Below are positions 3,079-35,627 of a DNA stretch of 41,806 bases, piece after piece. Both the position numbers and the translations under genes were made by a program. The stretch covers positions 1-41,806 of the IMG/VR virus record IMGVR_UViG_2851955134_000003. One strand, written 5' to 3'. Position 1 is the first letter of the stretch. Each line of letters starts with the position of its first letter. The stretch is from a virus (Duplodnaviria; Heunggongvirae; Uroviricota; Caudoviricetes). The notes below the pieces were generated by a model. It did not search any database. It was not told the origin of the DNA and worked only from the letters and a program-made list of their open reading frames with translations.

Positions 3079-3493
3079 TAAAACACCTTTTTTATCTCAC
3101 CATAAAAAAACAACAAGAATTGTAACCACGAATTACAATCCATATATGGTTTAATATGTATTTTTTTACATCACAAATCAACATCATGGAATCAAAAAAT
3201 AATAATGTTGATTGACAGGTAAGGATGTTCTTGTGTGACAGTGTAAACAAAAATAACAATCTATATTCAATCGTTAGTGGAGTTGCGCACAACCACTATG
3301 TTAAATAATTGATGCATCAATAATCAAAGTTCTAATAGATGGCAAACTGATTAATATGATCCAGAGCATTTATAATAATACAAAATATTTTCTATAGTTT
3401 TTAATTCTGCAAAGATAAAAGAGGCCACATTATATCGCATGAATAGTTATTAATTTTATAAAATAGTTAAATAGCGCATCCCTGCGCTATATT

Positions 3494-6076
3494 TTAAATA
3501 AACATAAGAATAAATATCAGAAGTTCCTCGTATCTGATACCATACTGATAGCCAGCAGGTTTAATAATAATCTGCCTTCCTGTGTAATATTCCTCGTCGT
3601 ACCACTCTCCTGTTTCATTGTTTTTAACACTCCTAATCAATACTTCTGGAGCATAAATATCATCCCATTCATCATAACACCAGAACGCATAGTTATTAGG
3701 GTCAAGACCGTATTTTCTGAGAATATTACCTACAGTTTGTGCACCAACACCGAAATGAATCCGAGCGCCATCACTCTTGATCTTTACTGCATCTTTAAAT
3801 TTAAACCTCCAGATATTTTCCTTTATTTCAAGCGCAGCAAGACGCTCTGATTCTGTTGTTTTCTCGTCAGCCTCAATACGCAATTTCAGCTCTTCATTCG
3901 ACGTGTTGATACTGCCAGTACCAGCGTATACCTGTGACCATCGAAATGCTGATGTTCCGTTTGAGTTAACATTATCAACAGTTGGTTTTATAAGGCCAGA
4001 AAAATGAGTTTCAGGTGTATTAATATATGTATATGCACCTGCTGTACTGCGAGTCCTTAACTCAAAACTGTCTATATCAACACCAGTCCTACGAATTATA
4101 AGGAAGTTATTTCCTGCGGAACCAGTATCTGTTTGAGTGCTAACAGATAATCCGTTTCGTGTATCAATACGTATATTCTTCCCGTTCTCCAGCGAAGCAG
4201 AATTATGTAGGTACAGCGAGTTGTCAGTGTAGAGATTGTGTTTACCTACATTACTAAATGTATAAGTATTGCTTGTGTCATCACTGTTCCTATGGAATTG
4301 CTGAAGAGTGTAGGCAGAAGATGCTCCGTATCCATCACAATGGAAATTTCTGCACAGCTGCAAATCGAATAACAATACGGTGTCAGCATTAATGCTCACA
4401 TTATTAAAGCATGTTGCAAAGTTGGCACCATACTGTGAATTGGAATCGCCAATCTGTGCGCACACATCAAGCAAACCAAAAGTTACATTGGTAAAGTTAT
4501 TTGCATCACCGGCGTCAAGAACAATCCCTTTCTTAGTCCCTGAATACCCTCTGGCAGTGCCGATCTCAATTCCCTGGAATGAACACACGCGAGCACGACT
4601 AAGCTTAAGACCAACCCATTCCAGACCATGATCGTAACCTTTTGCTGCGCGGTGAATAAACATACCATTCATGATGAGCAGGAATCTGTTATCCAGCCGT
4701 ACTGGTTCAAGTTGGGCATTAATACCAACATTTGTGCATATACATTCACCATAAGCATAACGATTCGTTTCAAATATACGATCATCAGCGTCGTAAATGC
4801 CTCGTAATGCCTTGGCGGCATCAATATTAAGCAATGTAAAATATGTCTTCTGCTTAATTTCAAAAAAATTTGCAACATTATGCGTTGTGATATCACTCAC
4901 ACGCATTGATAAAATCCCCTCTTCTGGAGCGGTGCGAATGAATCCATCAAGGAACTGTTCATTATAACTTTTGGCTATCTGATAACATCCAACAGCATCA
5001 ATGCGTTCGATTGTGAATTGCCAACTATCACCACAGTTAAAAGCCCATCTCCAGCCGTATTTCTGAGCGAATTCATCATATTCAACATTTGCAGGTTCAG
5101 AACAGAAAGATAAAAATATAAATGTTGGTTTTGGTCTGAGATGGTTAAGCCCGACACCTCTTGGAGTATATATAGCATTATCTCCATTCCCACCTTTTGT
5201 TTTAACTGTAAGGTGACTTAAACCAAATTCAATATCATATTTTGTTGGCGCAGCAAAAACAAAGCCGTCTTTTGGTGATGTGGTATTGTCAAACACAATA
5301 ACCGTTTCACCCTGCCCATCACCGCATATATTTATGGGTGGTATATTAACAGGACCAGTCACATTGTATATTCCTTTTGGCACATATAGTTTTCCGCCCT
5401 CTCCGAGAGCATTCGCTGCAGCAATAAATGCTGGCGTATCATCGATAATATTATCCCCTTTCGCCCCAAAATCTTTAACATTATAAACGTCACGCATCTT
5501 ATCCTGGAACGTTCTGTATACTGCCCCAGAACCATACTGAATAAACCAACCAAAACCACCAACAACTCCGGCGATTGCAGCATCGACATAATTACGCATT
5601 GAGCGATTATTTACAGCGTCCTGCTCAAGTGATGGATCTGCAAGGTTAGAAATTCTGTTTTGCTTTGCATCGTAATATTTTGCAAGCAAAGATGGTTTCA
5701 TCAATGCACGTCTGAACCACCCAAAACATTGCTGGATCAGCATCGTCAGGTAGTCAAAGGCATCTTCATGCACTTCGGGAAAAAACTTTCCCTGATTGCG
5801 AAGATCTGTCTCCTGTACTACATCAAGCACACGATCTATCGTAATTCGCCATCCAGTAGCAAGCGGAGACGGAAGAACCACAGAACCGCCACTATAAGTG
5901 CCAGCTCCAGTTACTGTATAACCGGTATCCAGAACCAATTCTGTTACGTTCCCGTTCAGGTCAGACACCTGAACAACCAGGTCGGATTTTTTGAAAATGC
6001 GGAAAGTATACGGAAACGATGTCGTAACTCCGTTACCGGTGTATTCGTTGTGGTCAACTTCGGTTGAGACCGTCAT
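3494..6076 (-). CDS. Tailspike/tail fibre with pectate-lyase-like beta-helix and C-terminal intramolecular chaperone (peptidase S74-like) domain
   Basis: 860 aa; conserved N-terminal anchor (FPYTFRIF); central region with DFGAKGDN and Asn/Gly/Thr-rich repeats typical of beta-helix depolymerases; C-terminal ~140 aa with GVGAQTVGNIL motif of auto-cleaving chaperone domains. Confidence 0.8.
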   Translation of the reverse strand: MTVSTEVDHNEYTGNGVTTSFPYTFRIFKKSDLVVQVSDLNGNVTELVLDTGYTVTGAGTYSGGSVVLPSPLATGWRITIDRVLDVVQETDLRNQGKFFPEVHEDAFDYLTMLIQQCFGWFRRALMKPSLLAKYYDAKQNRISNLADPSLEQDAVNNRSMRNYVDAAIAGVVGGFGWFIQYGSGAVYRTFQDKMRDVYNVKDFGAKGDNIIDDTPAFIAAANALGEGGKLYVPKGIYNVTGPVNIPPINICGDGQGETVIVFDNTTSPKDGFVFAAPTKYDIEFGLSHLTVKTKGGNGDNAIYTPRGVGLNHLRPKPTFIFLSFCSEPANVEYDEFAQKYGWRWAFNCGDSWQFTIERIDAVGCYQIAKSYNEQFLDGFIRTAPEEGILSMRVSDITTHNVANFFEIKQKTYFTLLNIDAAKALRGIYDADDRIFETNRYAYGECICTNVGINAQLEPVRLDNRFLLIMNGMFIHRAAKGYDHGLEWVGLKLSRARVCSFQGIEIGTARGYSGTKKGIVLDAGDANNFTNVTFGLLDVCAQIGDSNSQYGANFATCFNNVSINADTVLLFDLQLCRNFHCDGYGASSAYTLQQFHRNSDDTSNTYTFSNVGKHNLYTDNSLYLHNSASLENGKNIRIDTRNGLSVSTQTDTGSAGNNFLIIRRTGVDIDSFELRTRSTAGAYTYINTPETHFSGLIKPTVDNVNSNGTSAFRWSQVYAGTGSINTSNEELKLRIEADEKTTESERLAALEIKENIWRFKFKDAVKIKSDGARIHFGVGAQTVGNILRKYGLDPNNYAFWCYDEWDDIYAPEVLIRSVKNNETGEWYDEEYYTGRQIIIKPAGYQYGIRYEELLIFILMFI

Positions 6077-6130: not shown

Positions 6131-6195
6131 TTACCTGAAAAACCACATATGGATAGAAAGACTGTGAATATGAATAGATATTACCTTTCAGGTAA
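6131..6195. promoter_or_regulatory. Promoter/operator module A: half-site TTACCT, AACCACATAT element, full operator TTACCTTTCAGGTAA (6181-6195)
   Basis: 15-bp inverted repeat with perfect 6-bp arms; same architecture recurs at 26115-26191, 32604-32680 and 35684-35760. Confidence 0.55.
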
Positions 6196-6232
6196 TTTTC
6201 AAAACGTGCTGGATAGCAAACAAATTATTTGA

Positions 6233-6252
6233 TACTGTATAAATATACAGTT
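6233..6252 (+). promoter_or_regulatory. LexA (SOS) box TACTGTATAAATATACAGTT overlapping the promoter of the small antirepressor-like gene
   Basis: CTGT-N8-ACAG with AT-rich centre, 18 of 20 matches to the consensus TACTGTATATATATACAGTA; TTGATA -35-like hexamer at 6229-6234; gene starts 21 bp downstream. Confidence 0.7.
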
Positions 6253-6272
6253 ATTGCATGGAGAAGATTAAG

Positions 6273-6530
6273 ATGCAGCAGTATCACTATCCACTGGAAG
6301 AGGGATTTACCGAAAGGATTCACACGCCGGGAGGCGTCAGGTCACTGGTGGAGGGATCGCACTTGATGAAATTACTCCGGGATCTCGATAAGGATGGATT
6401 TAATGTCGATGGCCCACTTGCCGAACTGACTGCACTGATTAACTACGTCACCAGCTCACAGATGTCTATGCAGGATCTGCAAACACATCTCGACTATTGT
6501 GCCGAACAATTACGAAAACAAACCAGATAA
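6273..6530 (+). CDS. Small (85 aa) antirepressor-like protein, standalone copy of the C-terminal domain shared by the two Ant proteins
   Basis: Start ATG 6273 with RBS GGAGAAG; YHYPLEEGF...IHTPGGV...QTHLDY aligns with the C-terminal ~80 aa of the ORFs at 6844-7536 and 9054-9998; LexA box directly upstream. Confidence 0.6.
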   Translation: MQQYHYPLEEGFTERIHTPGGVRSLVEGSHLMKLLRDLDKDGFNVDGPLAELTALINYVTSSQMSMQDLQTHLDYCAEQLRKQTR

Positions 6531-6576: not shown

Positions 6577-6670
6577 ATTTACATCGCACTCCTCTTGTGC
6601 CATAGTAATCGGGCACTGGCAAAATCCAGTGCCGGGATTGGTCTCCCGGATTACTACAGAGGCACATATG

Positions 6671-6690
6671 CCGCATAAGCGGTTTTTTTA
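6671..6690 (+). terminator. Rho-independent terminator downstream of the small antirepressor-like gene
   Basis: Hairpin CCGC-ataa-GCGG followed by TTTTTTT. Confidence 0.5.
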
Positions 6691-6843
6691 TGTGTAAAGC
6701 GCACCTATTCTATGGTGGGCTGTGTGGGGGCACCGAAAGGTGCGCCGGGTTCCTTTGTAGCCGGTAAGACCAACTCTGCACAGTTCACCACCATCTGATT
6801 GGTCTCAGCGGTGGTGATTAACCTAACTACAAAGGTGATCGCC

Positions 6844-23896: not shown

Positions 23897-24189
23897 TCCT
23901 GTTCACTGGCCTCTTTGGCCATCTTCAAATACTGTTCAGGGCAATGCGCCATAACGCGCTGAAACAGTTCCAGCGCCAGATTGCGTTGCCCCTCATTAAA
24001 TGCCATAGCCATAGCGTCCATCGGTGAGATAGCGGAAAACACACGGCCTTTCTCCAGCACCGACCAGACAACGCGACGCCCCTGTTCACTGCTCATGACA
24101 AAGCAAATGTCATCAATTTCACGCTGTGCCATGTCACGTTGCTTACGGGCGTTTTCTTCTTTCAGTTGATCGTCTTCGTAATCTGTCAT
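23893..24189 (-). CDS. Hypothetical head-module protein (98 aa)
   Basis: Small acidic ORF coupled between portal and scaffold genes. Confidence 0.4.
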   Translation of the reverse strand: MTDYEDDQLKEENARKQRDMAQREIDDICFVMSSEQGRRVVWSVLEKGRVFSAISPMDAMAMAFNEGQRNLALELFQRVMAHCPEQYLKMAKEASEQE

Positions 24190-25865
24190 TGTGATTGCCC
24201 ACCCTGACCACTAACTGCATTCGCCATAGCTGACAAAACACTCGGATCCGAAGTTTTAGCTTCGCTTAGCGTCTTGGCACCCTGTGCCGCCGCCATCCCC
24301 ATCGCCATCATTTGTTGCTGCTGTTGTTGCTGTGCCCGTTGCTGGCGAGCCTGCTCAACCTGTTCCTGCGGAACAATGACGGTTGGAGACACTCCGGACA
24401 TATCAGCGAATGCATCGATCGCCTGATCAACGTTGAGTTTGTCGAGAGCTTCTGGTTTCGCTTGCGCAAGTTGACCAATGAAGTTGACCGTAGACGCCAG
24501 ACTGGACAGGCCGATAGACTTCTGCGCCTGAGCCATGACGGAAATGTATTCGACCTTCAGGGGCATACCTTCCATCGCGTCAGGCGGTGGCGGCAGCATG
24601 TTTTTACGCACCATCATCGAGAAAGCGCGGTCAATGAGAGGATTAAGACATTCGTCGTTCAGACGCTCCAGAACCGGCCCCAACATCAGAAGTTTTTCTT
24701 CTTTCATTTCGATCACCGCTTCAACAGGCATCGAGCGGGTATTGATGTTCTGCAACATCATGAACAGATCGACAAAGTAGGCGCTGTTAATGATTTGACG
24801 GGTGTCCTGAATGTCTGCCACCAAATCTGCTGTACTGGGGTTAACCAGATAAGCAGGCCTGAAACCATCCTGACCAGTAATCTGATCGATATACGTGATG
24901 TCGCCAGGAAGAAGGGAGGCACGCTGATTCTTGAGGGAAGTCGGAGCAACCATCGGCGGATTGGTGGCTTTATCAATCAACTGCGACTTGCGCTTCTGGA
25001 GAAGCTGCAATGCCTTAACAGGTCCAAGCGCCAGCATACCCGGGCATGATGATCCATAAACATCTTCGCCGTTAACTTCCCAGCGCGGAGCCATAATTGG
25101 AAACTCATCGAATCCGGACTCACGCAACAACTTGTCGTTATCGCCACCAACCTCGTAATAAACCGATTTGAATGGCTTGTTCTTGCTATCCAGCTTCGAT
25201 GTATCGCGGTCAATGTTCGGGTAAACCGAATGCATCACTTCAATCCACTTCTCGTAGGTTCCGCTTTCCCACATGCTTTTTACGGATTCGCTGACGTTAT
25301 TTAGCCCGAACTCCTGAACAAGCTGACGAACAGTCATAGAGAACTTGCGAAAACAGGTGTCCACACTGCCACGAGGTGAGTTAGCCAGGTAGTAACTGCC
25401 TATCGGGAATGGCATTGTGCGAATGATGTCCTCGTCATCCTCCAGCACTGCCATTGCACCAGTGCTGTATGTGCCGAGGCTTCCGTATAACTGCGGCAGC
25501 GACTGATAGAGATTCGACTTATTGAACATATCGTTCATGCGGTTCTGCACCGCCTCAAGCCACAACTTAACAGGGCCATAATCCATCATTTCAGGATCTG
25601 GCGTAGCCAGGCGAAACCACGGACGCGCGGGGCTTGTGATGCCTGACATCATGCCGCTGGCGAGAGTGCGCGCCGCCATAGTCCCGGTCGAATCAATAAT
25701 GCGTGTATTGCGTCGATCGTTACGGTTAACCTCAGAAGTCAGAAAGCGGGAACCACGCGGGTTGATGTAATCACTCAACTCGCGCCAGTGCGGCTCGAAC
25801 GACTGACGCTCGCTTTCAAGTTGTGCGAACTGTTTGTTCAATCGCTCTTTAGTTGTTTCCGCCAT
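24186..25865 (-). CDS. Portal protein
   Basis: 559-aa ORF downstream of the terminase genes with Gln-rich C-terminal tail. Confidence 0.6.
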   Translation of the reverse strand: MAETTKERLNKQFAQLESERQSFEPHWRELSDYINPRGSRFLTSEVNRNDRRNTRIIDSTGTMAARTLASGMMSGITSPARPWFRLATPDPEMMDYGPVKLWLEAVQNRMNDMFNKSNLYQSLPQLYGSLGTYSTGAMAVLEDDEDIIRTMPFPIGSYYLANSPRGSVDTCFRKFSMTVRQLVQEFGLNNVSESVKSMWESGTYEKWIEVMHSVYPNIDRDTSKLDSKNKPFKSVYYEVGGDNDKLLRESGFDEFPIMAPRWEVNGEDVYGSSCPGMLALGPVKALQLLQKRKSQLIDKATNPPMVAPTSLKNQRASLLPGDITYIDQITGQDGFRPAYLVNPSTADLVADIQDTRQIINSAYFVDLFMMLQNINTRSMPVEAVIEMKEEKLLMLGPVLERLNDECLNPLIDRAFSMMVRKNMLPPPPDAMEGMPLKVEYISVMAQAQKSIGLSSLASTVNFIGQLAQAKPEALDKLNVDQAIDAFADMSGVSPTVIVPQEQVEQARQQRAQQQQQQQMMAMGMAAAQGAKTLSEAKTSDPSVLSAMANAVSGQGGQSQ

Positions 25866-25879
25866 TTCAATGACTCCGG

Positions 25880-26086
25880 TTACTGACCAAGCAGCGTTTT
25901 ACCGCTGGTATTAGCAGTTGATGTGTCGCCCTGAGAACCGGTAAGCAGCGTAGAACTACGACCAGCAGCAGCGCGACGGCGACGAGTTTCTTCGTCGCGG
26001 GCATCAACAACGGCGGCATCCTGCTCCTGTGGTGCTGCCTGAACTTCTGGTGTTGCAGGCACTGATGGTGAGCTACCCATGCACAT
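25880..26086 (-). CDS. Possible small virion-module protein (68 aa)
   Basis: ORF just upstream of the portal with Ala/Gln/Ser/Thr-rich composition; a different frame (25867-26106) is also open, so uncertain. Confidence 0.25.
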   Translation of the reverse strand: MCMGSSPSVPATPEVQAAPQEQDAAVVDARDEETRRRRAAAGRSSTLLTGSQGDTSTANTSGKTLLGQ

Positions 26087-26114
26087 ATCAATGACTCCGT
26101 ACGCAATTAAATTA

Positions 26115-26191
26115 TTACCAATTTAACCACATATGATTTATTTATCGTAGACAGTTGACATTTAACGTGCGAATTATTACCTTTCAGGTAA
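26115..26191. promoter_or_regulatory. Promoter/operator module B: TTACCA half-site, AACCACATAT, TTGACA -35-like hexamer, operator TTACCTTTCAGGTAA (26177-26191)
   Basis: Operator 15-mer identical to the one at 6181-6195; same module architecture. Confidence 0.55.
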
Positions 26192-26513
26192 CCAAAGAGT
26201 TCATTCCGGTTACTAACCTGACTGGCTTGTCGTTAAATTGAACAGGTGGAGTGAGCTTTTATTTTGAGCAGTACGGCGTATGGCACATGCGCCGATAGCG
26301 GTCTGGATGCGTTTAAGGGGCACCCTCCCTGGCTGTGGCAAACGAACCAGGTAGCCGGAATGTGCAAGTCGAGCGGTTTTATTCCGCGCACGGGGATTCA
26401 CCATCCCGGCGATTCGGTGTGACGCCTCGGAAGAGACGAGGGTACAACGATGAGAGCATTTATGGAGCCGCGACAAAGTGTGGCGCCTTAACAGGCTAAG
26501 TGCTCTCAGCGTT

Positions 26514-26590
26514 GTGGCATTAGCTCAGTTGGACAGAGCAACCGCCTTCTAAGCGGTTGGTCGCAGGTTCGAATCCTGCATGCCACGCCA
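26514..26590 (+). tRNA. Phage-encoded tRNA-Arg (anticodon UCU)
   Basis: 77-nt cloverleaf folded by hand: acceptor GTGGCAT/ATGCCAC, D-arm GCTC/GAGC, anticodon stem ACCGC/GCGGT with loop CTTCTAA, T-arm GCAGG-TTCGAAT-CCTGC, discriminator G and encoded CCA; differs from host argU in the stems. Confidence 0.9.
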
Positions 26591-26633
26591 GAATCACGCC
26601 TAAGGACCGTGATGCCAGAAGTTCCAGGGGCTT

Positions 26634-26676
26634 GGCGGTGATGGTTTCCCTTGAAGGACTATCACCGCCCTTTTTA
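26634..26676 (+). terminator. Candidate terminator downstream of the tRNA
   Basis: GGCGGTGAT ... ATCACCGCC stem followed by CTTTTT. Confidence 0.5.
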
Positions 26677-26788
26677 CAGCAGGACGCCATTGCGATGACT
26701 TCATGCTGTAAACCAGTACAGCCACGGAAGGCATAACTCATTGCTTCCAGTTCGCCCGGTTCGCCGGGCATTTTTTTAAGGTGAGATC

Positions 26789-27211
26789 ATGAAAACAGCC
26801 GACATGCTAGCTAAATATCTAAATGAATGGCCGTGCAAATATGTACGCATTGTTCAGGGTGATGACTCAATTTTTTATGGTGTTTTTGCAGGAAATGAAA
26901 TGCTTTGTGAAGCAATTCCAGGTGAGCGACTTGCCGGGTTAACGCTTAGCGATGACCATGGAATAGGAGTTACTTGCCATGACTGGATTTCAGCGCAGAA
27001 AACTGAAATGGAAAAAGGCAATGTGTTTGATATTTCTCGCGCTGTATACGCCAAAGAAAAAAGTGATGATGATTACATGCGCGAAAACTTATACAACATG
27101 AAGTTACAATGCCTGGCTGAAGTGCTTAGTAAAAGATCTTTACTTGATGTGGTTGGTGCTGAGCAGGACGCCAAGGCAATCAACGCCGCATTCGATAAAA
27201 TAACCTTCTAA
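26789..27211 (+). CDS. Hypothetical cargo protein (140 aa) encoded opposite to the flanking late genes
   Basis: RBS AAGGTGAG; plus-strand gene between minus-strand terminase and portal genes; no recognisable domain. Confidence 0.6.
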   Translation: MKTADMLAKYLNEWPCKYVRIVQGDDSIFYGVFAGNEMLCEAIPGERLAGLTLSDDHGIGVTCHDWISAQKTEMEKGNVFDISRAVYAKEKSDDDYMRENLYNMKLQCLAEVLSKRSLLDVVGAEQDAKAINAAFDKITF

Positions 27212-27215
27212 CGCC

Positions 27216-27227
27216 GTGACATGTCAC
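27216..27227. repeat. Palindrome GTGACATGTCAC, copy 2 of 3
   Basis: Five bp after the stop of the cargo ORF and directly before a terminator hairpin. Confidence 0.6.
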
Positions 27228-27232
27228 AATCA

Positions 27233-27256
27233 GCCCGCCGATTCGCGGGCTTTTTT
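27233..27256 (+). terminator. Rho-independent terminator of the plus-strand cargo ORF
   Basis: GCCCGC-cgattc-GCGGGC followed by TTTTTT. Confidence 0.75.
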
Positions 27257-28730
27257 ATGCAAAAGGATCATAGTCTGTGATGGCTTTGCCTTGCTGGTTC
27301 TGCTGCCCAGGAATTCGCAGACGCTTCGACACAGGGAAAGCAAACGTCAGCAGTAGCGCATCGCCTTTACCCGGCGAACGCCCAAGCCGCTCCTTGATAT
27401 CTTCCTTCGGTTCGATAACGATTTTACCGTCCACACGAACTTTGTACTCTGCTGCCGACAGGTCGTCCGCTGTTTCCTGGTCATCCAGCATGCCGCCGAG
27501 CCTCAGCCATGTCTTGCATGAGTTGAACATCTCCCCACGCTTGTTGAGCATCTGCGGGTCAGTAGACGCGCCACCGAACGGAACAAGTTGCCATGTACGA
27601 CCCCAGCCGTCACCGATTGACTTCAGACCAGTTCCGTAACCGAAGTCGATGAACACTGCGTCAGCCTGGTACTGGTCTTCAAAGTCAGCGATACGCTTCG
27701 CCATAATCAGATCGTCAGTGGTCTTGTTGCCAGTCCACAGCACCTTACTGTGCAGCCCCTGCCGCAGGTATATCACAGCGTCATCAACGCCTGAGTATGC
27801 CGGGTCAACGCCGATTATCACCGGAGCATGTGCAACCTGCGCAGCGGTTACCACCCGTTTCATTGCCTCGTCAGTAAGACCGGTAGGGATAAACTGCAAT
27901 TCAGATGCATCAGGGAATATGCCGCGCACACGGATTTTAACGAAGTCGCTATCTTCCCCGTAGTCATCAACCCATTTCTGCAACTGCTGTTTGTTAGTGC
28001 CTTCCACCGTCCGGCTGTCAATCTGCGCAGTTTTCCAGCGGTGTTTATATTTGCGGAAACATTCGCGGAAACGCCCGGTGTTACGTGTAGGGTTTCCGAA
28101 CGCTACCCAGATAATCTCAGTGTCTTCGTCCGTAAGCGCACCCTCAGCAACTTCCCACACCAGATCCGCAATGTTCGACGCTTCATCGAATACCACGATG
28201 ATGCGTTTGCGCTCGTTGTGTAGTCCGGCGAACGCCTCAGTGTTGTGCTCAGACCAGGGGATTGCGTCAGCTCGCCACCGCTTGTCGTGCCCAGGGTCAT
28301 TGCTGTACATCGCGGTAGCGGTACAGGTAAACCAGTCTTTCGTGATAGCAAGGTTCGACCACTTGATAATTTCCGGCCAGGTCTTCGTTCGTAGCTGGTT
28401 GTCGGTGTTGGCGGTCACCACAACCTTACAATCCTCGCAAGTGGACATGCCCCAGTTGATCAGCATTGAGATGAATGCGGATTTACCAATACCGTGACCC
28501 GAAGCGCGTGCCAGCATAAGCGGCTGATAGCGCGTCTCTGGATTCTGCAGGTGATCACGTATCTCTCGGAACGCATCAGCCTGCCACTGACGTGGACCGG
28601 TGGCATGTGCCAGTTCAGTCCCATCTTCCCCCCACGGGAACGCATAGAGGGCATAGCCAAGCGGATCGTGAGTGAACCCTGCAATATCCTCGATTAACTG
28701 CTCTTCAGGAGATAACGCTGTATCTGTCAC
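27255..28730 (-). CDS. Terminase large subunit
   Basis: 491 aa with Walker A-like ASGHGIGKS, ATPase and nuclease-type acidic motifs; overlaps the small-subunit gene. Confidence 0.85.
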   Translation of the reverse strand: MTDTALSPEEQLIEDIAGFTHDPLGYALYAFPWGEDGTELAHATGPRQWQADAFREIRDHLQNPETRYQPLMLARASGHGIGKSAFISMLINWGMSTCEDCKVVVTANTDNQLRTKTWPEIIKWSNLAITKDWFTCTATAMYSNDPGHDKRWRADAIPWSEHNTEAFAGLHNERKRIIVVFDEASNIADLVWEVAEGALTDEDTEIIWVAFGNPTRNTGRFRECFRKYKHRWKTAQIDSRTVEGTNKQQLQKWVDDYGEDSDFVKIRVRGIFPDASELQFIPTGLTDEAMKRVVTAAQVAHAPVIIGVDPAYSGVDDAVIYLRQGLHSKVLWTGNKTTDDLIMAKRIADFEDQYQADAVFIDFGYGTGLKSIGDGWGRTWQLVPFGGASTDPQMLNKRGEMFNSCKTWLRLGGMLDDQETADDLSAAEYKVRVDGKIVIEPKEDIKERLGRSPGKGDALLLTFAFPVSKRLRIPGQQNQQGKAITDYDPFA

Positions 28731-29323
28731 TGATTACCATCCTGACGTTCTTTGAGTCGCTTCCTGGCTGCTGCTATGCGATCAGCAATTGTCACATTCA
28801 CATTAACATCCAGACGTTCTTTGAATGCGTTGACATCAACATGCTTACCAATCAGCTCAAGGTTCTTCACCTTGTCAGGCCATTTAATTTTTTTGAGGAT
28901 TGTCTCTATTGAATCCTCGTTCATGTTCATGATGGTCGATGACAGATCAAAGCCACTAAGCGTAGTGCGCCAGATTTTCGGCCACTCACGGATTGGTTTA
29001 AGGCTCCCATCGTCGTTGAGGATGTCGATCACGTCCATCTGGTCGATCTCCACCAGGCGCATGAGAACGTAATCAGCACTGACACGCATTCGTTTGTTGC
29101 GCTCCTCCATCAACTCGGCAATCCGTTTCTGAATGCGTTCATCGCGCATCATGACACTGGCTTTAACTGCCGCTGTATTTGGGGAGAATCCTGCGTTAAT
29201 CGCAGCCTGAGTCTGGTTTTCAGGCGTTTTGATGTATGACTGGCAATAAGCCTCCTGCATTGCTGTGAGCGGCTTAAATTGCGTTGATTTGCGTTTATAG
29301 GTTTTAGGTTCAGCAGGCATCAT
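28727..29323 (-). CDS. Terminase small subunit
   Basis: Directly upstream of the large subunit; helix-turn-helix-like N-terminal region; probable start at the tandem ATGs 29323/29320 (the ORF-track start at 29401 is TTG). Confidence 0.65.
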   Translation of the reverse strand: MMPAEPKTYKRKSTQFKPLTAMQEAYCQSYIKTPENQTQAAINAGFSPNTAAVKASVMMRDERIQKRIAELMEERNKRMRVSADYVLMRLVEIDQMDVIDILNDDGSLKPIREWPKIWRTTLSGFDLSSTIMNMNEDSIETILKKIKWPDKVKNLELIGKHVDVNAFKERLDVNVNVTIADRIAAARKRLKERQDGNQ

Positions 29324-29433
29324 AACCACCGTGGTAATTGTTACCGTTGTGGTAATAATACCATGCAAAATAAAGCCGCCATAGTTGGCGGCAGTATTCA
29401 AAATCCATCAAATTCATCATGCATAATCTACTC

Positions 29434-35042: not shown

Positions 35043-35627
35043 ATGAAAAGTATCCAGGACGTCCGCAGGCAAAATCTCAACGACTTGATCGACCGTGAAT
35101 TCAATGGTGTTCAGACGCGGATGGCAGAAAAACTTGGAACTCAGGCAAATCTGGTAAACCGCTGGGCTCTTGGCAAGAAGGTTATCGGCGACCAGGTTGC
35201 GCGAAAAATTGAAGCTGCCGCCAATAAACCACGTAACTGGCTTGATATCGATCGCTCGCTTTCTCAGGAAGGTTTTCAGCCTGTCGGCCCAAGCGACATT
35301 GGTCAGCTGGCGGCTCACAACCTGGAACGCTGGATGAGCGAAAGCCGCGACCTTTCAACGCAGGGAAAACTACACCGCGCATCCGGCGTCGCCCAGGTGA
35401 CAATCAGCCGCCTGTTAAACAATGAGGTCAGCGTTTCCATTTCCACCCTGGAGAATGTTGCATCCGCATTCGGGCGTCACGGCTATGAATTACTGATTCA
35501 CCCGCACGACCCTGCGACCATCAACTATGATCGCTCGCGCTACGCATTGTTACCCGAAACCGAGAAAGCAAAGATCGAAAGTTACATTGAATTTGTCATC
35601 AACCAGAACGAAAAAAACAAACAATAA
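35043..35627 (+). CDS. CI-like prophage repressor with two HTH regions and no S24 peptidase domain
   Basis: 194 aa; N-terminal HTH (RMAEKLGTQANLVNRWALG) and second HTH-like segment (ASGVAQVTISRLLNNE); no Ser-Lys autocleavage domain; divergent from cro-like gene. Confidence 0.7.
   Translation: MKSIQDVRRQNLNDLIDREFNGVQTRMAEKLGTQANLVNRWALGKKVIGDQVARKIEAAANKPRNWLDIDRSLSQEGFQPVGPSDIGQLAAHNLERWMSESRDLSTQGKLHRASGVAQVTISRLLNNEVSVSISTLENVASAFGRHGYELLIHPHDPATINYDRSRYALLPETEKAKIESYIEFVINQNEKNKQ

Follow-up and report, generated by a model that had tools for sequence, protein, structure and literature searches.

A covarying RNA core shared by epsilon15-like, lambdoid and P1-like phages lies in a repressor-linked plus-strand unit of a Uetakevirus

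Layout of the plus-strand unit

The window, the whole stretch of 41,806 nucleotides that was analysed, comes from a Uetakevirus (epsilon15/phiV10-like) phage whose nearest records are the Uetakeviruses PAS61, HEMP4 and phiV10. Positions 26155-27257 form a unit on the plus strand, set between terminase and portal genes as the original prediction described, and the flanking genes lie on the minus strand (Table 1). Its parts are a promoter bearing an operator, ~330 nt lacking any credible ORF, the tRNA-Arg(UCU), terminators and an ORF of 140 aa. Taken singly, tRNA, operator and cargo ORF are nothing unusual. The transcribed region of ~490 nt, tRNA included, runs from a leader through a 173-nt core, the hairpin P7, the tRNA and a small hairpin to a strong intrinsic terminator. 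The unit had been described as an insertion, but it is not peculiar to the window phage: the module fills this slot across Uetakeviruses of E. coli, Salmonella, Klebsiella, Citrobacter, Enterobacter and Erwinia. In epsilon15, a deletion derivative, the first hairpin is all that is left of it (32.5 bits with the covariance model R1), and the 'RNase III' site annotated on its late strand falls within an epsilon15-specific insertion. A genuine C4 RNA copy is located elsewhere in the window, at 6708-6795 (Rfam).

Table 1 Features of the plus-strand unit and its flanks, in window coordinates
Feature	Position	Strand	Description
Portal	24186-25865	-	
gp3-like ORF	25880-26086	-	flanks the unit
Sigma-70-type promoter	26155-26183	+	-35 TTGACA 26155-26160, 17-nt spacer, -10 TACCTT 26178-26183; read from sequence
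Repressor operator	26176-26192	.	palindrome ATTACCTTTCAGGTAAC; overlaps the -10 and the predicted start site
5' leader	26190-26272	+	degenerate copy of a long-hairpin module whose intact form is found in Klebsiella and Erwinia relatives
Conserved RNA core	26273-26445	+	173 nt; five covarying helices, one a pseudoknot; invariant junction sequences
Core helix H1	26274-26294	+	
Core helix P3	26302-26306 with 26347-26351	+	
Invariant core segment	26350-26368	+	GGUAGCCGGAAUGUGCAAG
Core hairpin P4	between the invariant segment and P5	+	variable
Core helix P5	26393-26396 with 26404-26407	+	
Core pseudoknot	26399-26402 with 26416-26419	+	CACC with GGUG
Core hairpin P6	26425-26441	+	loop GAAGAGA
Long hairpin P7	26445-26514	+	CAACGAUGAGAGCA ... 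UGCUCUCAGCGUUG, variable tip; 3' strand runs straight into tRNA position +1
tRNA-Arg	26514-26590	+	anticodon UCU (reads AGA); ARAGORN; Rfam RF00005, 73.3 bits vs gathering score 29
Small hairpin	26593-26613	+	AUCACG-CCUAAGGAC-CGUGAU, 3' of the tRNA; also in L145, L141/L146, L154 and L230
Intrinsic terminator T1	26634-26675 (scan 26634-26669)	+	14-pair stem and U-run; 3' end of the conserved cassette
LexA-like box	26706-26721	.	CTGTAAACCAGTACAG; fits CTGT-N8-ACAG
Intrinsic terminator T2	26754-26777 (scan 26754-26769)	+	~11 nt 5' of the ORF start codon, directly before the RBS
140-aa cargo ORF	26789-27211	+	PHROG 4846, E 7.7e-87 over residues 1-140 of 140
Perfect palindrome	27216-27227	.	GTGACATGTCAC, 12 bp, between ORF stop codon and T3; read from sequence
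Terminator T3	27232-27257 (scan 27232-27251)	.	tail-to-tail, shared with TerL; rho-independent terminator in the phiV10 annotation
TerL	27255-28730	-	flanks the unit

The operator-bearing promoter proposed at the outset is recovered as TTGACA-17-TACCTT with the palindrome ATTACCTTTCAGGTAAC lying across its -10 box. Both boxes and the distance between them are kept in epsilon15, Tyrion and phiV10, and the predicted transcription start falls at ~26190; the promoter scan tool's own choice is an overlapping TAGACA-18-AATTAT. The operator pattern ATTACCnnnnnGGTAAT occurs 13 times in the window, where 1.17 occurrences are expected, among them sites flanking the repressor ORF at 35043-35627 (the immunity region), and the homologous site in the epsilon15 record is annotated as a repressor binding site. 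Because the operator recurs at the immunity region, repression of the unit is expected in lysogens and early expression once they are induced; on this reading it would be silent in the lysogen and transcribed immediately on derepression. The leader is read from comparison with the leaders of the related loci L145 and L147 (ACAACAUGAAAGCGCAC...GUGCGCUUCCAGGUGUG) together with an alignment to epsilon15 and Tyrion.

The terminator scan finds three terminators in the unit. T1 is homologous to the hairpin and U-run that follow the lambdoid copies of the element (cdtI/mEp460), with compensatory changes in the stem (GAUGG/CUAUC vs ACCAG/CUGGU). T2 is kept in epsilon15, again with a compensatory stem change, and the terminator-RBS-ORF layout is also present in L146, L141 and L145. 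The palindrome that follows the ORF, originally given as 14 bp, is 12 bp long. The LexA-like pattern is indeed present upstream of the ORF but is poorly conserved: it is kept in L232, its 3' ACAG half is lost in L230 (Enterobacter) and in epsilon15, and the flank is deleted in PAS61. The box is probably not functional.

The 140-aa ORF is present as predicted and matches PHROG 4846, a family without known function, over its full length. Its 111 homologues are all labelled 'hypothetical' and come essentially all from Enterobacterales (one Hafnia), and the ORF occupies the same slot in six of six places examined. It has a PF13876 neighbour. The protein has no Pfam match, no PDB sequence match and no PADLOC-DB family at E<=1. 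Its AlphaFold (AF2) model is of low confidence (pLDDT 66.6, pTM 0.38) and returns nothing from the PDB by Foldseek at E<=0.001, so no function can be assigned to it. The suggested defence or anti-defence role thus finds no support in PADLOC, Pfam, PDB sequence or fold searches, and the predicted shut-off in lysogens, with expression after induction, argues against a defence cargo expressed in the lysogen. The ORF would be an interchangeable cargo, expressed only through read-through of T1 and T2.

An RNA family outside Rfam in three phage groups

The stretch 26200-26513 had been described as rich in short hairpins, with a lack of covariation named as grounds for giving up a structured reading. 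Covariation is found, and the structure is firmer than had been claimed. The covariance model R1 scores the core at 149 bits (E 3e-43), the sole strong match in the window. RNAalifold predicts 49 pairs, 19 of them with compensatory changes, P7 pairs included. In the hand-built core model of 27 pairs, 94.4% of cells are paired and 12 pairs show double changes, whereas slid controls reach at most 52% paired; none of 500 shuffles attained the observed values, except for the count of further pair types, which 4 of 500 attained. At the pseudoknot pair, 25 sequences have C-G and 5 have A-U, and pairing is kept in every one. Three unrelated phage groups share invariant segments as long as 19 nt, and the peripheral helices (P3 interior and P4) are variable. 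The thermodynamic z-score is modest and does not discriminate the strands (-2.2 plus, -2.7 minus). The strand is set by the G-U pairs: many core pairs are G-U on the plus strand, which identifies the RNA as the plus strand, and a minus-strand RNA was rejected for the core.

Downstream of the core, RNAalifold pairs positions 230-249 with 337-355 in P7, with compensatory changes in 14 of the 18 pairs, and the P7 tip is exchanged cassette-wise in L025, L146, L009 and L088. The tRNA-Arg(UCU) is genuine by both ARAGORN and Rfam, in line with its original identification, and AGA accounts for 7.5 per 1000 codons in the phage ORFs. Relatives carry a cloverleaf-like domain in place of the tRNA, built from a T-arm-like hairpin stacked on an acceptor-like stem, and the canonical GGUUCGAnUCC is present in the replacement domains of L145 and L137. 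The non-coding stretch had been offered as either a tRNA leader or a small RNA. Its character as a structured RNA stands, but that of a mere tRNA leader does not: the core exists without a tRNA in lambdoids and 3' of trnI in P1.

The core belongs to an RNA family outside Rfam that is common to epsilon15-like, lambdoid and P1-like temperate phages of Enterobacteriaceae. Rfam 15 (4227 models) gives no gathering-level match to 26190-26513, and at E<=10 only opposite-strand noise appears (ceN46 14.1 bits, ZEB2_AS1_2 13.4 bits); in this unit these searches matched the tRNA alone. A resemblance to the RfaH ops/JUMPStart element (GGCGGTAGnnTG, non-template strand) was rejected: the JUMPstart Rfam motif does not match the stretch, and the invariant GGTAGCC segment agrees with ops at only 8 of 12 positions, its 5' bases varying between CCAG and GCGG. 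ARAGORN finds no tmRNA, permuted forms included, in the window or in 30 related loci. At the positions of the element, E. coli genome annotations list 'none', as does the P1 record with its 535 features. A literature search covering put-like RNAs, P1 trnI/ban, tRNA-adjacent prophage RNAs and the invariant sequences found no description, and the Pas sRNA preprint is unrelated to the element.

A protein-coding reading of 26200-26513 was rejected, as both strands hold only Arg-rich artefact ORFs. Hypothetical CDSs are annotated over the element in relatives (mEp460_037, mEp390_036, Tyrion gp54), on differing strands and in differing frames. A 13-codon mini-ORF (AUG AGA ..., 26450-26491; 8 nt 3' of GAGG) was considered as an Arg-codon leader peptide and dismissed because its start codon or frame is lost in L090, L132 and L078.

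BLAST matches to the element occur in 1839 of 5426 complete E. coli genomes (about one third), and the element is found in P1, P7, D6, SJ46, SopranoGao, mEp390, cdtI, mEp460 and Stx2a/2c phages. The GTDB matches comprise 22 Enterobacterales species genomes and two MAG records, one of the MAGs being a false match. The covariance model returns one high-scoring match per locus in 34 + 35 loci (123-160 bits), and two further copies are cut off at a locus end. This comparison with related phages, proposed in the original prediction, places the same core in epsilon15-like, lambdoid and P1 contexts. In P1 the element sits between trnI and ban (core 71009-71294), its core starting 14 nt 3' of trnI. 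P1 proper keeps the core alone, without hairpin P7, tRNA-like domain or terminator, as a 5' UTR ~90 nt before ban and inside the C1-controlled ban operon, which holds a dicF-like region, tRNAs and the element together. In lambdoids the element is the first thing transcribed after cI, in the order repressor gene, its terminator, PL-like promoter with palindrome, element. Lambda carries N (nutL/N) at the corresponding position after cI. The lambdoid cores stand without any tRNA and are followed by a terminator-like hairpin before the early-left genes; the position is PL-proximal in all lambdoid copies, and the model finds no second copy at any locus. A promoter lies immediately 5' of the element in SopranoGao, L139 and L142, and a strong terminator follows P7 in a Stenotrophomonas phage. 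The cassette, terminator included, is conserved between the epsilon15-like and lambdoid groups; the downstream genes are unrelated across contexts, and no partner protein is conserved beside the element. The CPS-53 prophage of E. coli K-12 has no copy despite yfdP-R genes like those of the lambdoid hosts of the element, consistent with the element's absence from the K-12 annotation.

Candidate functions of the RNA

The arrangement suggests that 26155-26675 could be a self-contained early RNA gene under the prophage repressor, its structured RNA freed by tRNA processing, a reading whose chance is a little short of even. When the repressor falls, the sigma-70 promoter would transcribe the unit at once. 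RNase P would then cut the 5' end of the tRNA or tRNA-like domain, and this cleavage would free a discrete structured RNA of ~250-320 nt (leader, core and P7), while the tRNA-Arg would provide AGA decoding for AGA-rich phage genes. In the most speculative step, the freed RNA may use its invariant junctions and pseudoknot to act in trans on some conserved factor of the host in the early lytic phase. We infer the promoter activity, the processing and the discrete RNA species from the arrangement of the sequence. The adjacent promoter and a terminator co-conserved with the cassette speak for a self-contained gene; P7 abutting tRNA position +1, the cloverleaf-like replacements and the closeness of the P1 core to trnI speak for tRNA-type processing. 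A 5' leader paired up to -1 is an unusual RNase P substrate, which counts against such release, and the lack of a conserved partner protein beside the element counts against the trans-acting step. In the P1/P7 C4 RNA, the P4 CI RNA and the eukaryotic MALAT1-mascRNA, a tRNA-like structure within a longer transcript is a processing signal that sets the end of a functional non-coding RNA, and a signal of this kind would explain the tRNA or tRNA-like domain of the element. C4 and CI are short antisense immunity RNAs, and RNase P processing of the element is a proposal. Any function is accessory, since epsilon15 is a viable phage without the core and P1 can do without its ban operon in the laboratory (PMC10695390).

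The close rival, possible though less probable, is an antiterminator RNA, processive and acting in cis, of the kind known from HK022 put, Bacillus EAR and Tn916 canT, in which the nascent core would bind the elongating RNA polymerase and carry it through T1 and T2 to the cargo ORF, into the early-left operon in lambdoids and into ban in P1. RNAs of the HK022 put type drive terminator read-through in cis by binding the zinc-binding domain of the RNA polymerase beta' subunit. The element resembles put in being a structured RNA just 3' of a repressor-controlled early promoter, at the place of lambda nutL/N, with no dedicated protein partner and with terminators downstream. It is always upstream of, and co-oriented with, the downstream genes; every lambdoid copy is the first off a PL-like promoter, where lambda has nutL/N and HK022 putL, with no N-like ORF between the promoter and the next terminator. 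The epsilon15-like phages conserve the terminator-RBS-ORF layout, and T2 before the cargo RBS, like the terminator-like hairpin of lambdoids, is what a cis-acting antiterminator would need. The lack of a conserved phage protein partner is expected of an RNA acting on the host RNA polymerase, the invariant junctions suit binding to a highly conserved host machine, and the layout of the P1 core as a 5' UTR before ban fits a cis-regulatory role better, EAR too lying within its operon. However, put is ~70 nt with two stem-loops and comes as a PL and PR pair, whereas the element has a pseudoknotted core of 160+ nt, a long hairpin and a tRNA or tRNA-like domain in a single copy per phage, none of them after cro, where cdtI leaves only ~30 nt to the next ORF. 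Model R1, run with filters off over HK022 nun-PL-cI-PR, peaks at 6.3 bits in an unrelated place and reaches 3.5 bits within the PL leader; membership of the put family was rejected on this search. The terminator travels with the cassette, which suggests the end of an RNA gene and not a target, read-through past T3 in the window would run antisense into TerL and TerS, epsilon15 retains T2 and the ORF without the core, and antitermination leaves the tRNA or tRNA-like domain unexplained.

The remaining readings are less probable. A ligand- or tRNA-sensing riboswitch-like leader, tuning early transcription or downstream expression to host physiology, is unlikely. The architecture is aptamer-like (invariant junctions, a pseudoknot, and variable periphery in the P3 interior and P4), GUUGUGG could alternatively pair with CAAC at the base of P7 or with the CCACAAC that ends the tRNA-like domain, and loop L5 ends in ACCA, which pairs with UGGU and resembles a tRNA 3' end/T-box bulge contact; but the terminator lies 130-230 nt past the core with an independent domain between, leaving no compact expression platform, the unrelated downstream genes point to no common regulated pathway that would suggest a ligand, and no riboswitch family in Rfam matches. 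Slightly less likely again is a self-cleaving or catalytic RNA that processes the early transcript, for instance by setting where the adjacent tRNA or tRNA-like domain begins and ends, or by trimming off a 5' triphosphate leader. Small ribozyme classes are enriched in phage DNA, the core is conserved and pseudoknotted with invariant single-stranded segments, and it adjoins phage tRNAs, lying 3' of trnI in P1 and 5' of tRNA-Arg in the window. Against catalysis, its 160+ nt exceed the known small ribozymes, no Rfam ribozyme family matches, no conserved candidate cleavage site was identified, and host RNase P and RNase E already account for tRNA maturation. That the stretch has no function of its own, and is a DNA-level site, the remains of a protein gene or simply a long leader of the tRNA, is very improbable and already disfavoured: the hypothetical CDSs annotated across it in several records and the mini-ORF after GAGG would fit, but those CDSs disagree in strand and frame and the mini-ORF is broken in three loci, while compensatory changes, covariation in the pseudoknot and G-U pairing are all plus-strand signals at the RNA level, the invariant segments persist in three unrelated phage groups and the lambdoid core needs no tRNA beside it.

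Relation to known phage RNAs and significance

Several known systems share single traits with the element. Like ROOL and GOLLD, it is a large, highly structured (pro)phage non-coding RNA of unknown function, such RNAs often lying beside tRNA genes. ROOL and GOLLD measure 580-800 nt and come mainly from Firmicutes and from lake and rumen samples, whereas the element spans ~250-400 nt in phages of Enterobacteriaceae and one of its helices runs on physically into the tRNA or tRNA-like domain; the ROOL and GOLLD Rfam models give no match to it. DicF and its like are also non-coding RNAs from a repressor-controlled early operon, that of lambdoid prophages or the P1 ban operon. DicF, however, is a 53-nt Hfq-dependent base-pairing sRNA, and the complex, conserved tertiary-type core of the element argues for another mode of action. 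Hairpin P6, with a 5-bp GC-rich stem and a purine loop (GAAGAGA or GAAAGA), recalls lambda nut boxB, and extra P6-type hairpins occur near the element in some phages. BoxB has a GNRA-like pentaloop, whereas the P6 loops are of 6-7 nt and P6 is embedded in a much larger conserved fold. A boxB/nut system was rejected: there is no adjacent boxA (by eye), and no N-like ORF is annotated before the next genes in cdtI, mEp460 and Stx2a_1447.

In conclusion, the element may represent a new class of phage regulatory RNA, a proposal that stands evenly balanced: either a tRNA-fused, RNase P-released RNA of ~160 nt or a new, much larger RNA-only processive antiterminator, switched on at the fall of the repressor in P1, lambdoids and epsilon15-like phages and acting on a conserved host machine (RNA polymerase, the translation/tRNA apparatus or tRNA-directed defence). 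A pseudoknotted core with 19 invariant junction nucleotides is a signature of specific binding, which makes a new host target or an RNA-based transcription mechanism realistic. In practical terms, spurious CDS annotations in several phage records can be corrected, and a covariance model is available for annotating prophages. If the RNA is real, E. coli and the best-studied phages, Shiga-toxin- and cdt-converting lambdoids among them, carry a large and complex RNA that nobody had annotated. Its place at the very start of early transcription raises the question of how N-less lambdoids control the early-left operon, and its tRNA that of why phage tRNAs are so often embedded in structured non-coding RNA.

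A covarying RNA at the centre of the unit

The window is a phage or prophage of the Uetakevirus (epsilon15/phiV10-like) type, and over 25800-27400 it shares 97.9% identity with Escherichia phage PAS61 and, across 71% of the length, about 98% with phiV10. The plus-strand unit is bordered by minus-strand genes, with TerL on one flank and the gp3-like ORF and portal gene on the other. Its tRNA, operator, terminators and cargo ORF are ordinary for a phage accessory-gene slot.

The non-coding stretch, for which the original prediction offered a tRNA leader or a small RNA, is a structured RNA upheld by covariation. About 40 distinct versions were aligned, drawn from 120 viral contigs, 24 genome records (22 Enterobacterales species) and single phage records. 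Over 27 pairs in 30 sequences, 94.4% of the cells hold standard pairs, and compensatory changes occur in 12 of the pairs. None of 500 shuffles reached the observed values, with the exception of further pair types (4 of 500), and sliding the partners lowers pairing to 29-52%. One P3 pair alternates between U-A and C-G (14 versus 16 sequences). The pseudoknot reads AACC/GGUU in other lineages, and exactly this double change sets apart two otherwise near-identical Kosakonia copies. Since G-U pairs are frequent, the minus strand is excluded for the RNA. A covariance model of the core yields a single strong match in the window at 26273-26445 (149 bits, E 3e-43) and one match per locus in 69 other loci (123-160 bits), along with two copies truncated by the locus end.

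Some phages carry extra P6-like hairpins (GC stem, GAAAGA loop), with up to four same-strand repeats around the element, often with UGACA ahead of them and CACAAC plus a P7-like hairpin behind. They have the look of a repeated module that is nut-like or binds protein.

Features of the unit and its surroundings; L handles denote collected homologous loci in their own coordinates
Feature	Position	Strand	Remark
Portal gene	24186-25865	minus	same flank as gp3-like ORF
gp3-like ORF	25880-26086	minus	flank of unit
Promoter	-35 26155-26160; -10 26178-26183	plus	TTGACA, 17-nt spacer, TACCTT; read from sequence
Operator palindrome ATTACCTTTCAGGTAAC	26176-26192		overlaps -10
H1	26274-26294	plus	9-bp hairpin
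P3	26302-26306 with 26347-26351	plus	closes variable subdomain
Invariant 19-mer GGUAGCCGGAAUGUGCAAG	26350-26368	plus	
P4		plus	variable hairpin
P5		plus	GGGA/UCCC, loop UUCACCA
H-type pseudoknot	26399-26402 with 26416-26419	plus	loop CACC with GGUG
Near-invariant segment GGCGAUUCGGUGUGAC		plus	listed between pseudoknot and P6
P6	26425-26441	plus	CCUCG-GAAGAGA-CGAGG
P7	26445-26514	plus	long hairpin, covarying stem
tRNA-Arg(tct)	26514-26590	plus	
Intrinsic terminators	26634-26669; 26754-26769; 27232-27251	plus	
Cargo ORF	26789-27211	plus	140 aa
Perfect palindrome GTGACATGTCAC	27216-27227		12 bp; between cargo stop codon and terminator common to TerL
TerL	27255-28730	minus	other flank of unit
TerS ORF	28727-29401	minus	
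Overlapping CDS phiV10p04	L001 2221-2472		
Overlapping CDS mEp460_037	L004 2943-3311		
Overlapping CDS mEp390_036	L134 3011-3253		
Overlapping CDS Tyrion gp54	L135 3101-3262		
Extra P6-like hairpins	L133 2876-3446; L137 1413-1879; L134 3288-3303; L147 6849-6864; L136 3168-3181		

Distribution and genomic contexts

A sensitive BLAST search with 26087-26600 matches 26273-26517, at about 81% identity, to lambdoid phage DNA that has never been annotated; the phages include cdtI, mEp460, Stx2c and Stx2a phages, 2H10 and Ayreon. With the core alone, 83 phage records match, among them P1, P7, D6, SJ46, RCS47, SopranoGao, mEp390 and a Stenotrophomonas phage. Among complete E. coli genomes, 1839 of 5426 match the core, 1471 of them over at least 80% of the query; 554 of the matching places are on plasmids, some of which are P1-like and about 90-100 kb in size. 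E. coli K-12 lacks the core. The features annotated beneath the matches are "none" or a tRNA alone. Some public records place hypothetical CDSs over the structured RNA or antisense to the tRNA; these share neither strand nor frame, and the four tabulated are probably spurious. Rfam 15 gives no match to the non-coding stretch even at E<=10, and a literature search retrieved neither the core's invariant sequences nor a description of the RNA. Sequence and structure tests for membership of known families all leave the RNA outside them.

In epsilon15-like phages, whose hosts include E. coli, Salmonella, Klebsiella, Citrobacter, Enterobacter and Erwinia, the operator promoter recurs, pointing away from gp3/portal; downstream of it come the RNA and then variable cargo ORFs of PHROG 4846, the PF13876 gp49/66 family or others, with a terminator directly before the RBS of every first cargo ORF. 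Epsilon15 itself (L002 2746-3232) keeps the operator promoter, H1 and the start of P3; everything from that point inside the core through the first terminator (remaining core, P7, tRNA and the terminator itself) is deleted. Its leader also has an insertion of some 140 nt, not in the window, which overlaps a 100-bp stretch annotated as an RNase III site. Lambdoid carriers span at least five immunity types and share one layout: a repressor gene of S24 or HTH type with its terminator, then a strong, palindrome-bearing PL-like promoter (TTGACA-16-CATAAT in cdtI), then the element, beyond which lie early-left genes (yfdP, yfdQ, yfdR and others); no N-like ORF is present at these loci. In P1-like phages the element sits within the C1-controlled ban operon, starting 14 nt past trnI and upstream of ban; two additional tRNAs and a dicF-like region belong to this operon too. 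In SopranoGao and two Kosakonia prophages a promoter directly adjoins H1. The element always has the orientation of the early operon.

The predicted 140-aa ORF is real as an ORF and belongs to PHROG 4846, a family of no known function. It has no Pfam or PADLOC match; its 111 homologues, all named "hypothetical", are essentially all from Enterobacterales (one Hafnia), and the gene occupies the same slot in six of six places examined. AlphaFold yields a low-confidence model (pLDDT 66.6), and neither a PDB sequence search nor Foldseek with this model returned a match. Placed after the RNA gene, the ORF is an interchangeable cargo gene; the suggested defence or anti-defence role is possible but gained no support. 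The Enterobacter relatives L230/L231 carry three ORFs here (3417-3809), namely a PHROG 4846 homologue, a PF13876 (N4 gp49 / Sf6 gp66) protein and an 82-aa ORF, so the slot behaves as an accessory-gene hot spot.

Operator control, tRNA-like domain and terminators

The predicted operator-bearing promoter is borne out by its hexamers, by 13 occurrences of ATTACCnnnnnGGTAAT in the window versus 1.17 expected, and by the homologous site in the epsilon15 GenBank record, annotated as a repressor binding site. The promoter is conserved in epsilon15, Tyrion and phiV10. Further operators lie on both sides of the repressor ORF (34972, 35683, 35745), upstream of TerS (29322, 29340) and in the antirepressor region (6180, 6561, 7609). 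The TerS pair (29322-29356, adjacent sites, one mismatch each) lies within and just upstream of the TerS 5' end, so direct repressor control of the packaging and late genes, in place of a late-activator cascade, is possible. The LexA-like box within the unit conforms to CTGT-N8-ACAG, yet relatives do not conserve its 3' half. A near-consensus LexA box, CTGTATAAATATACAG (6235-6250), lies about 40 bp past a perfect operator (6180-6196) and just upstream of ORF 6258-6530; as a candidate SOS box it is much better, and it suggests a LexA-controlled antirepressor-type gene. The operators at 6180 and 6561 accompany an isrK-like RNA (6613-6689, Rfam 74.7 bits) and, immediately after it, a C4 antisense RNA (6708-6795, 78.6 bits); the two RNAs make up a putative immI module of P1/P7 type (antirepressor control) within an epsilon15-like phage. 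Rfam also reports a P22 sar antisense RNA at 10000-10067, just above threshold (45.2 bits, gathering score 43).

The tRNA-Arg, correctly predicted, is the single tRNA found by ARAGORN in the window (Rfam 73.3 bits), and no gap separates the P7 3' strand from its position +1. In lambdoid, P1-like and many epsilon15-like relatives, it is replaced by a 70-135-nt domain closed by GUUGUGG...CCACAAC, with a cloverleaf-like fold that has a D-arm-like hairpin and, stacked on the closing stem, a T-arm-like one; two versions retain the canonical GGUUCGAnUCC T-loop. In Superficieibacter electus (L140 ~4357-4500, locus minus strand) a complete type-A tRNA-like domain, GUGAAUGCGCAGGCUGAUGCGC...GCCGGAGAUCAGCGCCGGCCACCACAAC, lies upstream of the core and ends 4 nt before H1, so such domains can stand in tandem, with the core between them. 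The P7 tip is swapped as a cassette among otherwise near-identical copies. P7 also contains a 13-codon mini-ORF (26450-26491; AUG AGA GCA UUU AUG GAG ... UAA) with GAGG 8 nt upstream, whose second codon is the rare Arg codon decoded by the neighbouring tRNA; it begins AUG AGG in lambdoid copies and AUG AGA in the Stenotrophomonas phage. As a coding sequence it was rejected, the start codon or frame being lost in four homologous loci (L090, L132, L137, L078), and it is probably a by-product of the P7 helix sequence.

The terminator scan gives three plus-strand intrinsic terminators, and the palindrome after the ORF measures 12 bp instead of 14. After the tRNA or tRNA-like domain comes a short spacer and then a terminator that is homologous between the window and cdtI/mEp460; its stem shows compensatory changes (GGCGGUGAUGG...CUAUCACCGCC versus GGCGGUACCAG...CUGGUACCGC, both followed by CUUUUUACA). 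The conserved unit thus runs from the core through the terminator, the extent that a self-contained RNA gene should have.

Possible action of the RNA

The unit joins a conserved pseudoknotted plus-strand RNA, an operator-overlapped promoter and a conserved terminator to a genuine tRNA or tRNA-like domain continuous with P7. Because the operator overlaps the promoter, the lysogen would keep the unit silent and derepression would switch it on, with transcription immediate after induction. A structured RNA some 250-320 nt long would be set free by RNase P cutting at the tRNA or tRNA-like domain; this resembles the tRNA-type RNase P processing of P1 C4 RNA, P4 CI RNA and eukaryotic MALAT1/mascRNA. 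The tRNA-Arg(UCU) may compensate for AGA, which reaches 7.5 per 1000 codons in the phage ORFs, several-fold above the E. coli average. Most speculatively, the released RNA would act in trans upon a conserved host factor, a tentative reading that we regard as possible rather than probable.

A close but somewhat less likely rival is a cis-acting, put-like processive antiterminator. It would account for the location next to PL, the lack of N and the terminators ahead of downstream genes, but fits poorly with one copy only per phage, a terminator that travels with the cassette, the convergent TerL gene in the window and a core without any similarity to HK022 put. A riboswitch-like element is improbable, and a ribozyme equally so. 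A functionless leader or decayed gene is effectively excluded because of the covariation. Within the unit it is the RNA itself that is unusual, and we rate it as a new class, structurally elaborate and very widespread, including in phage P1.
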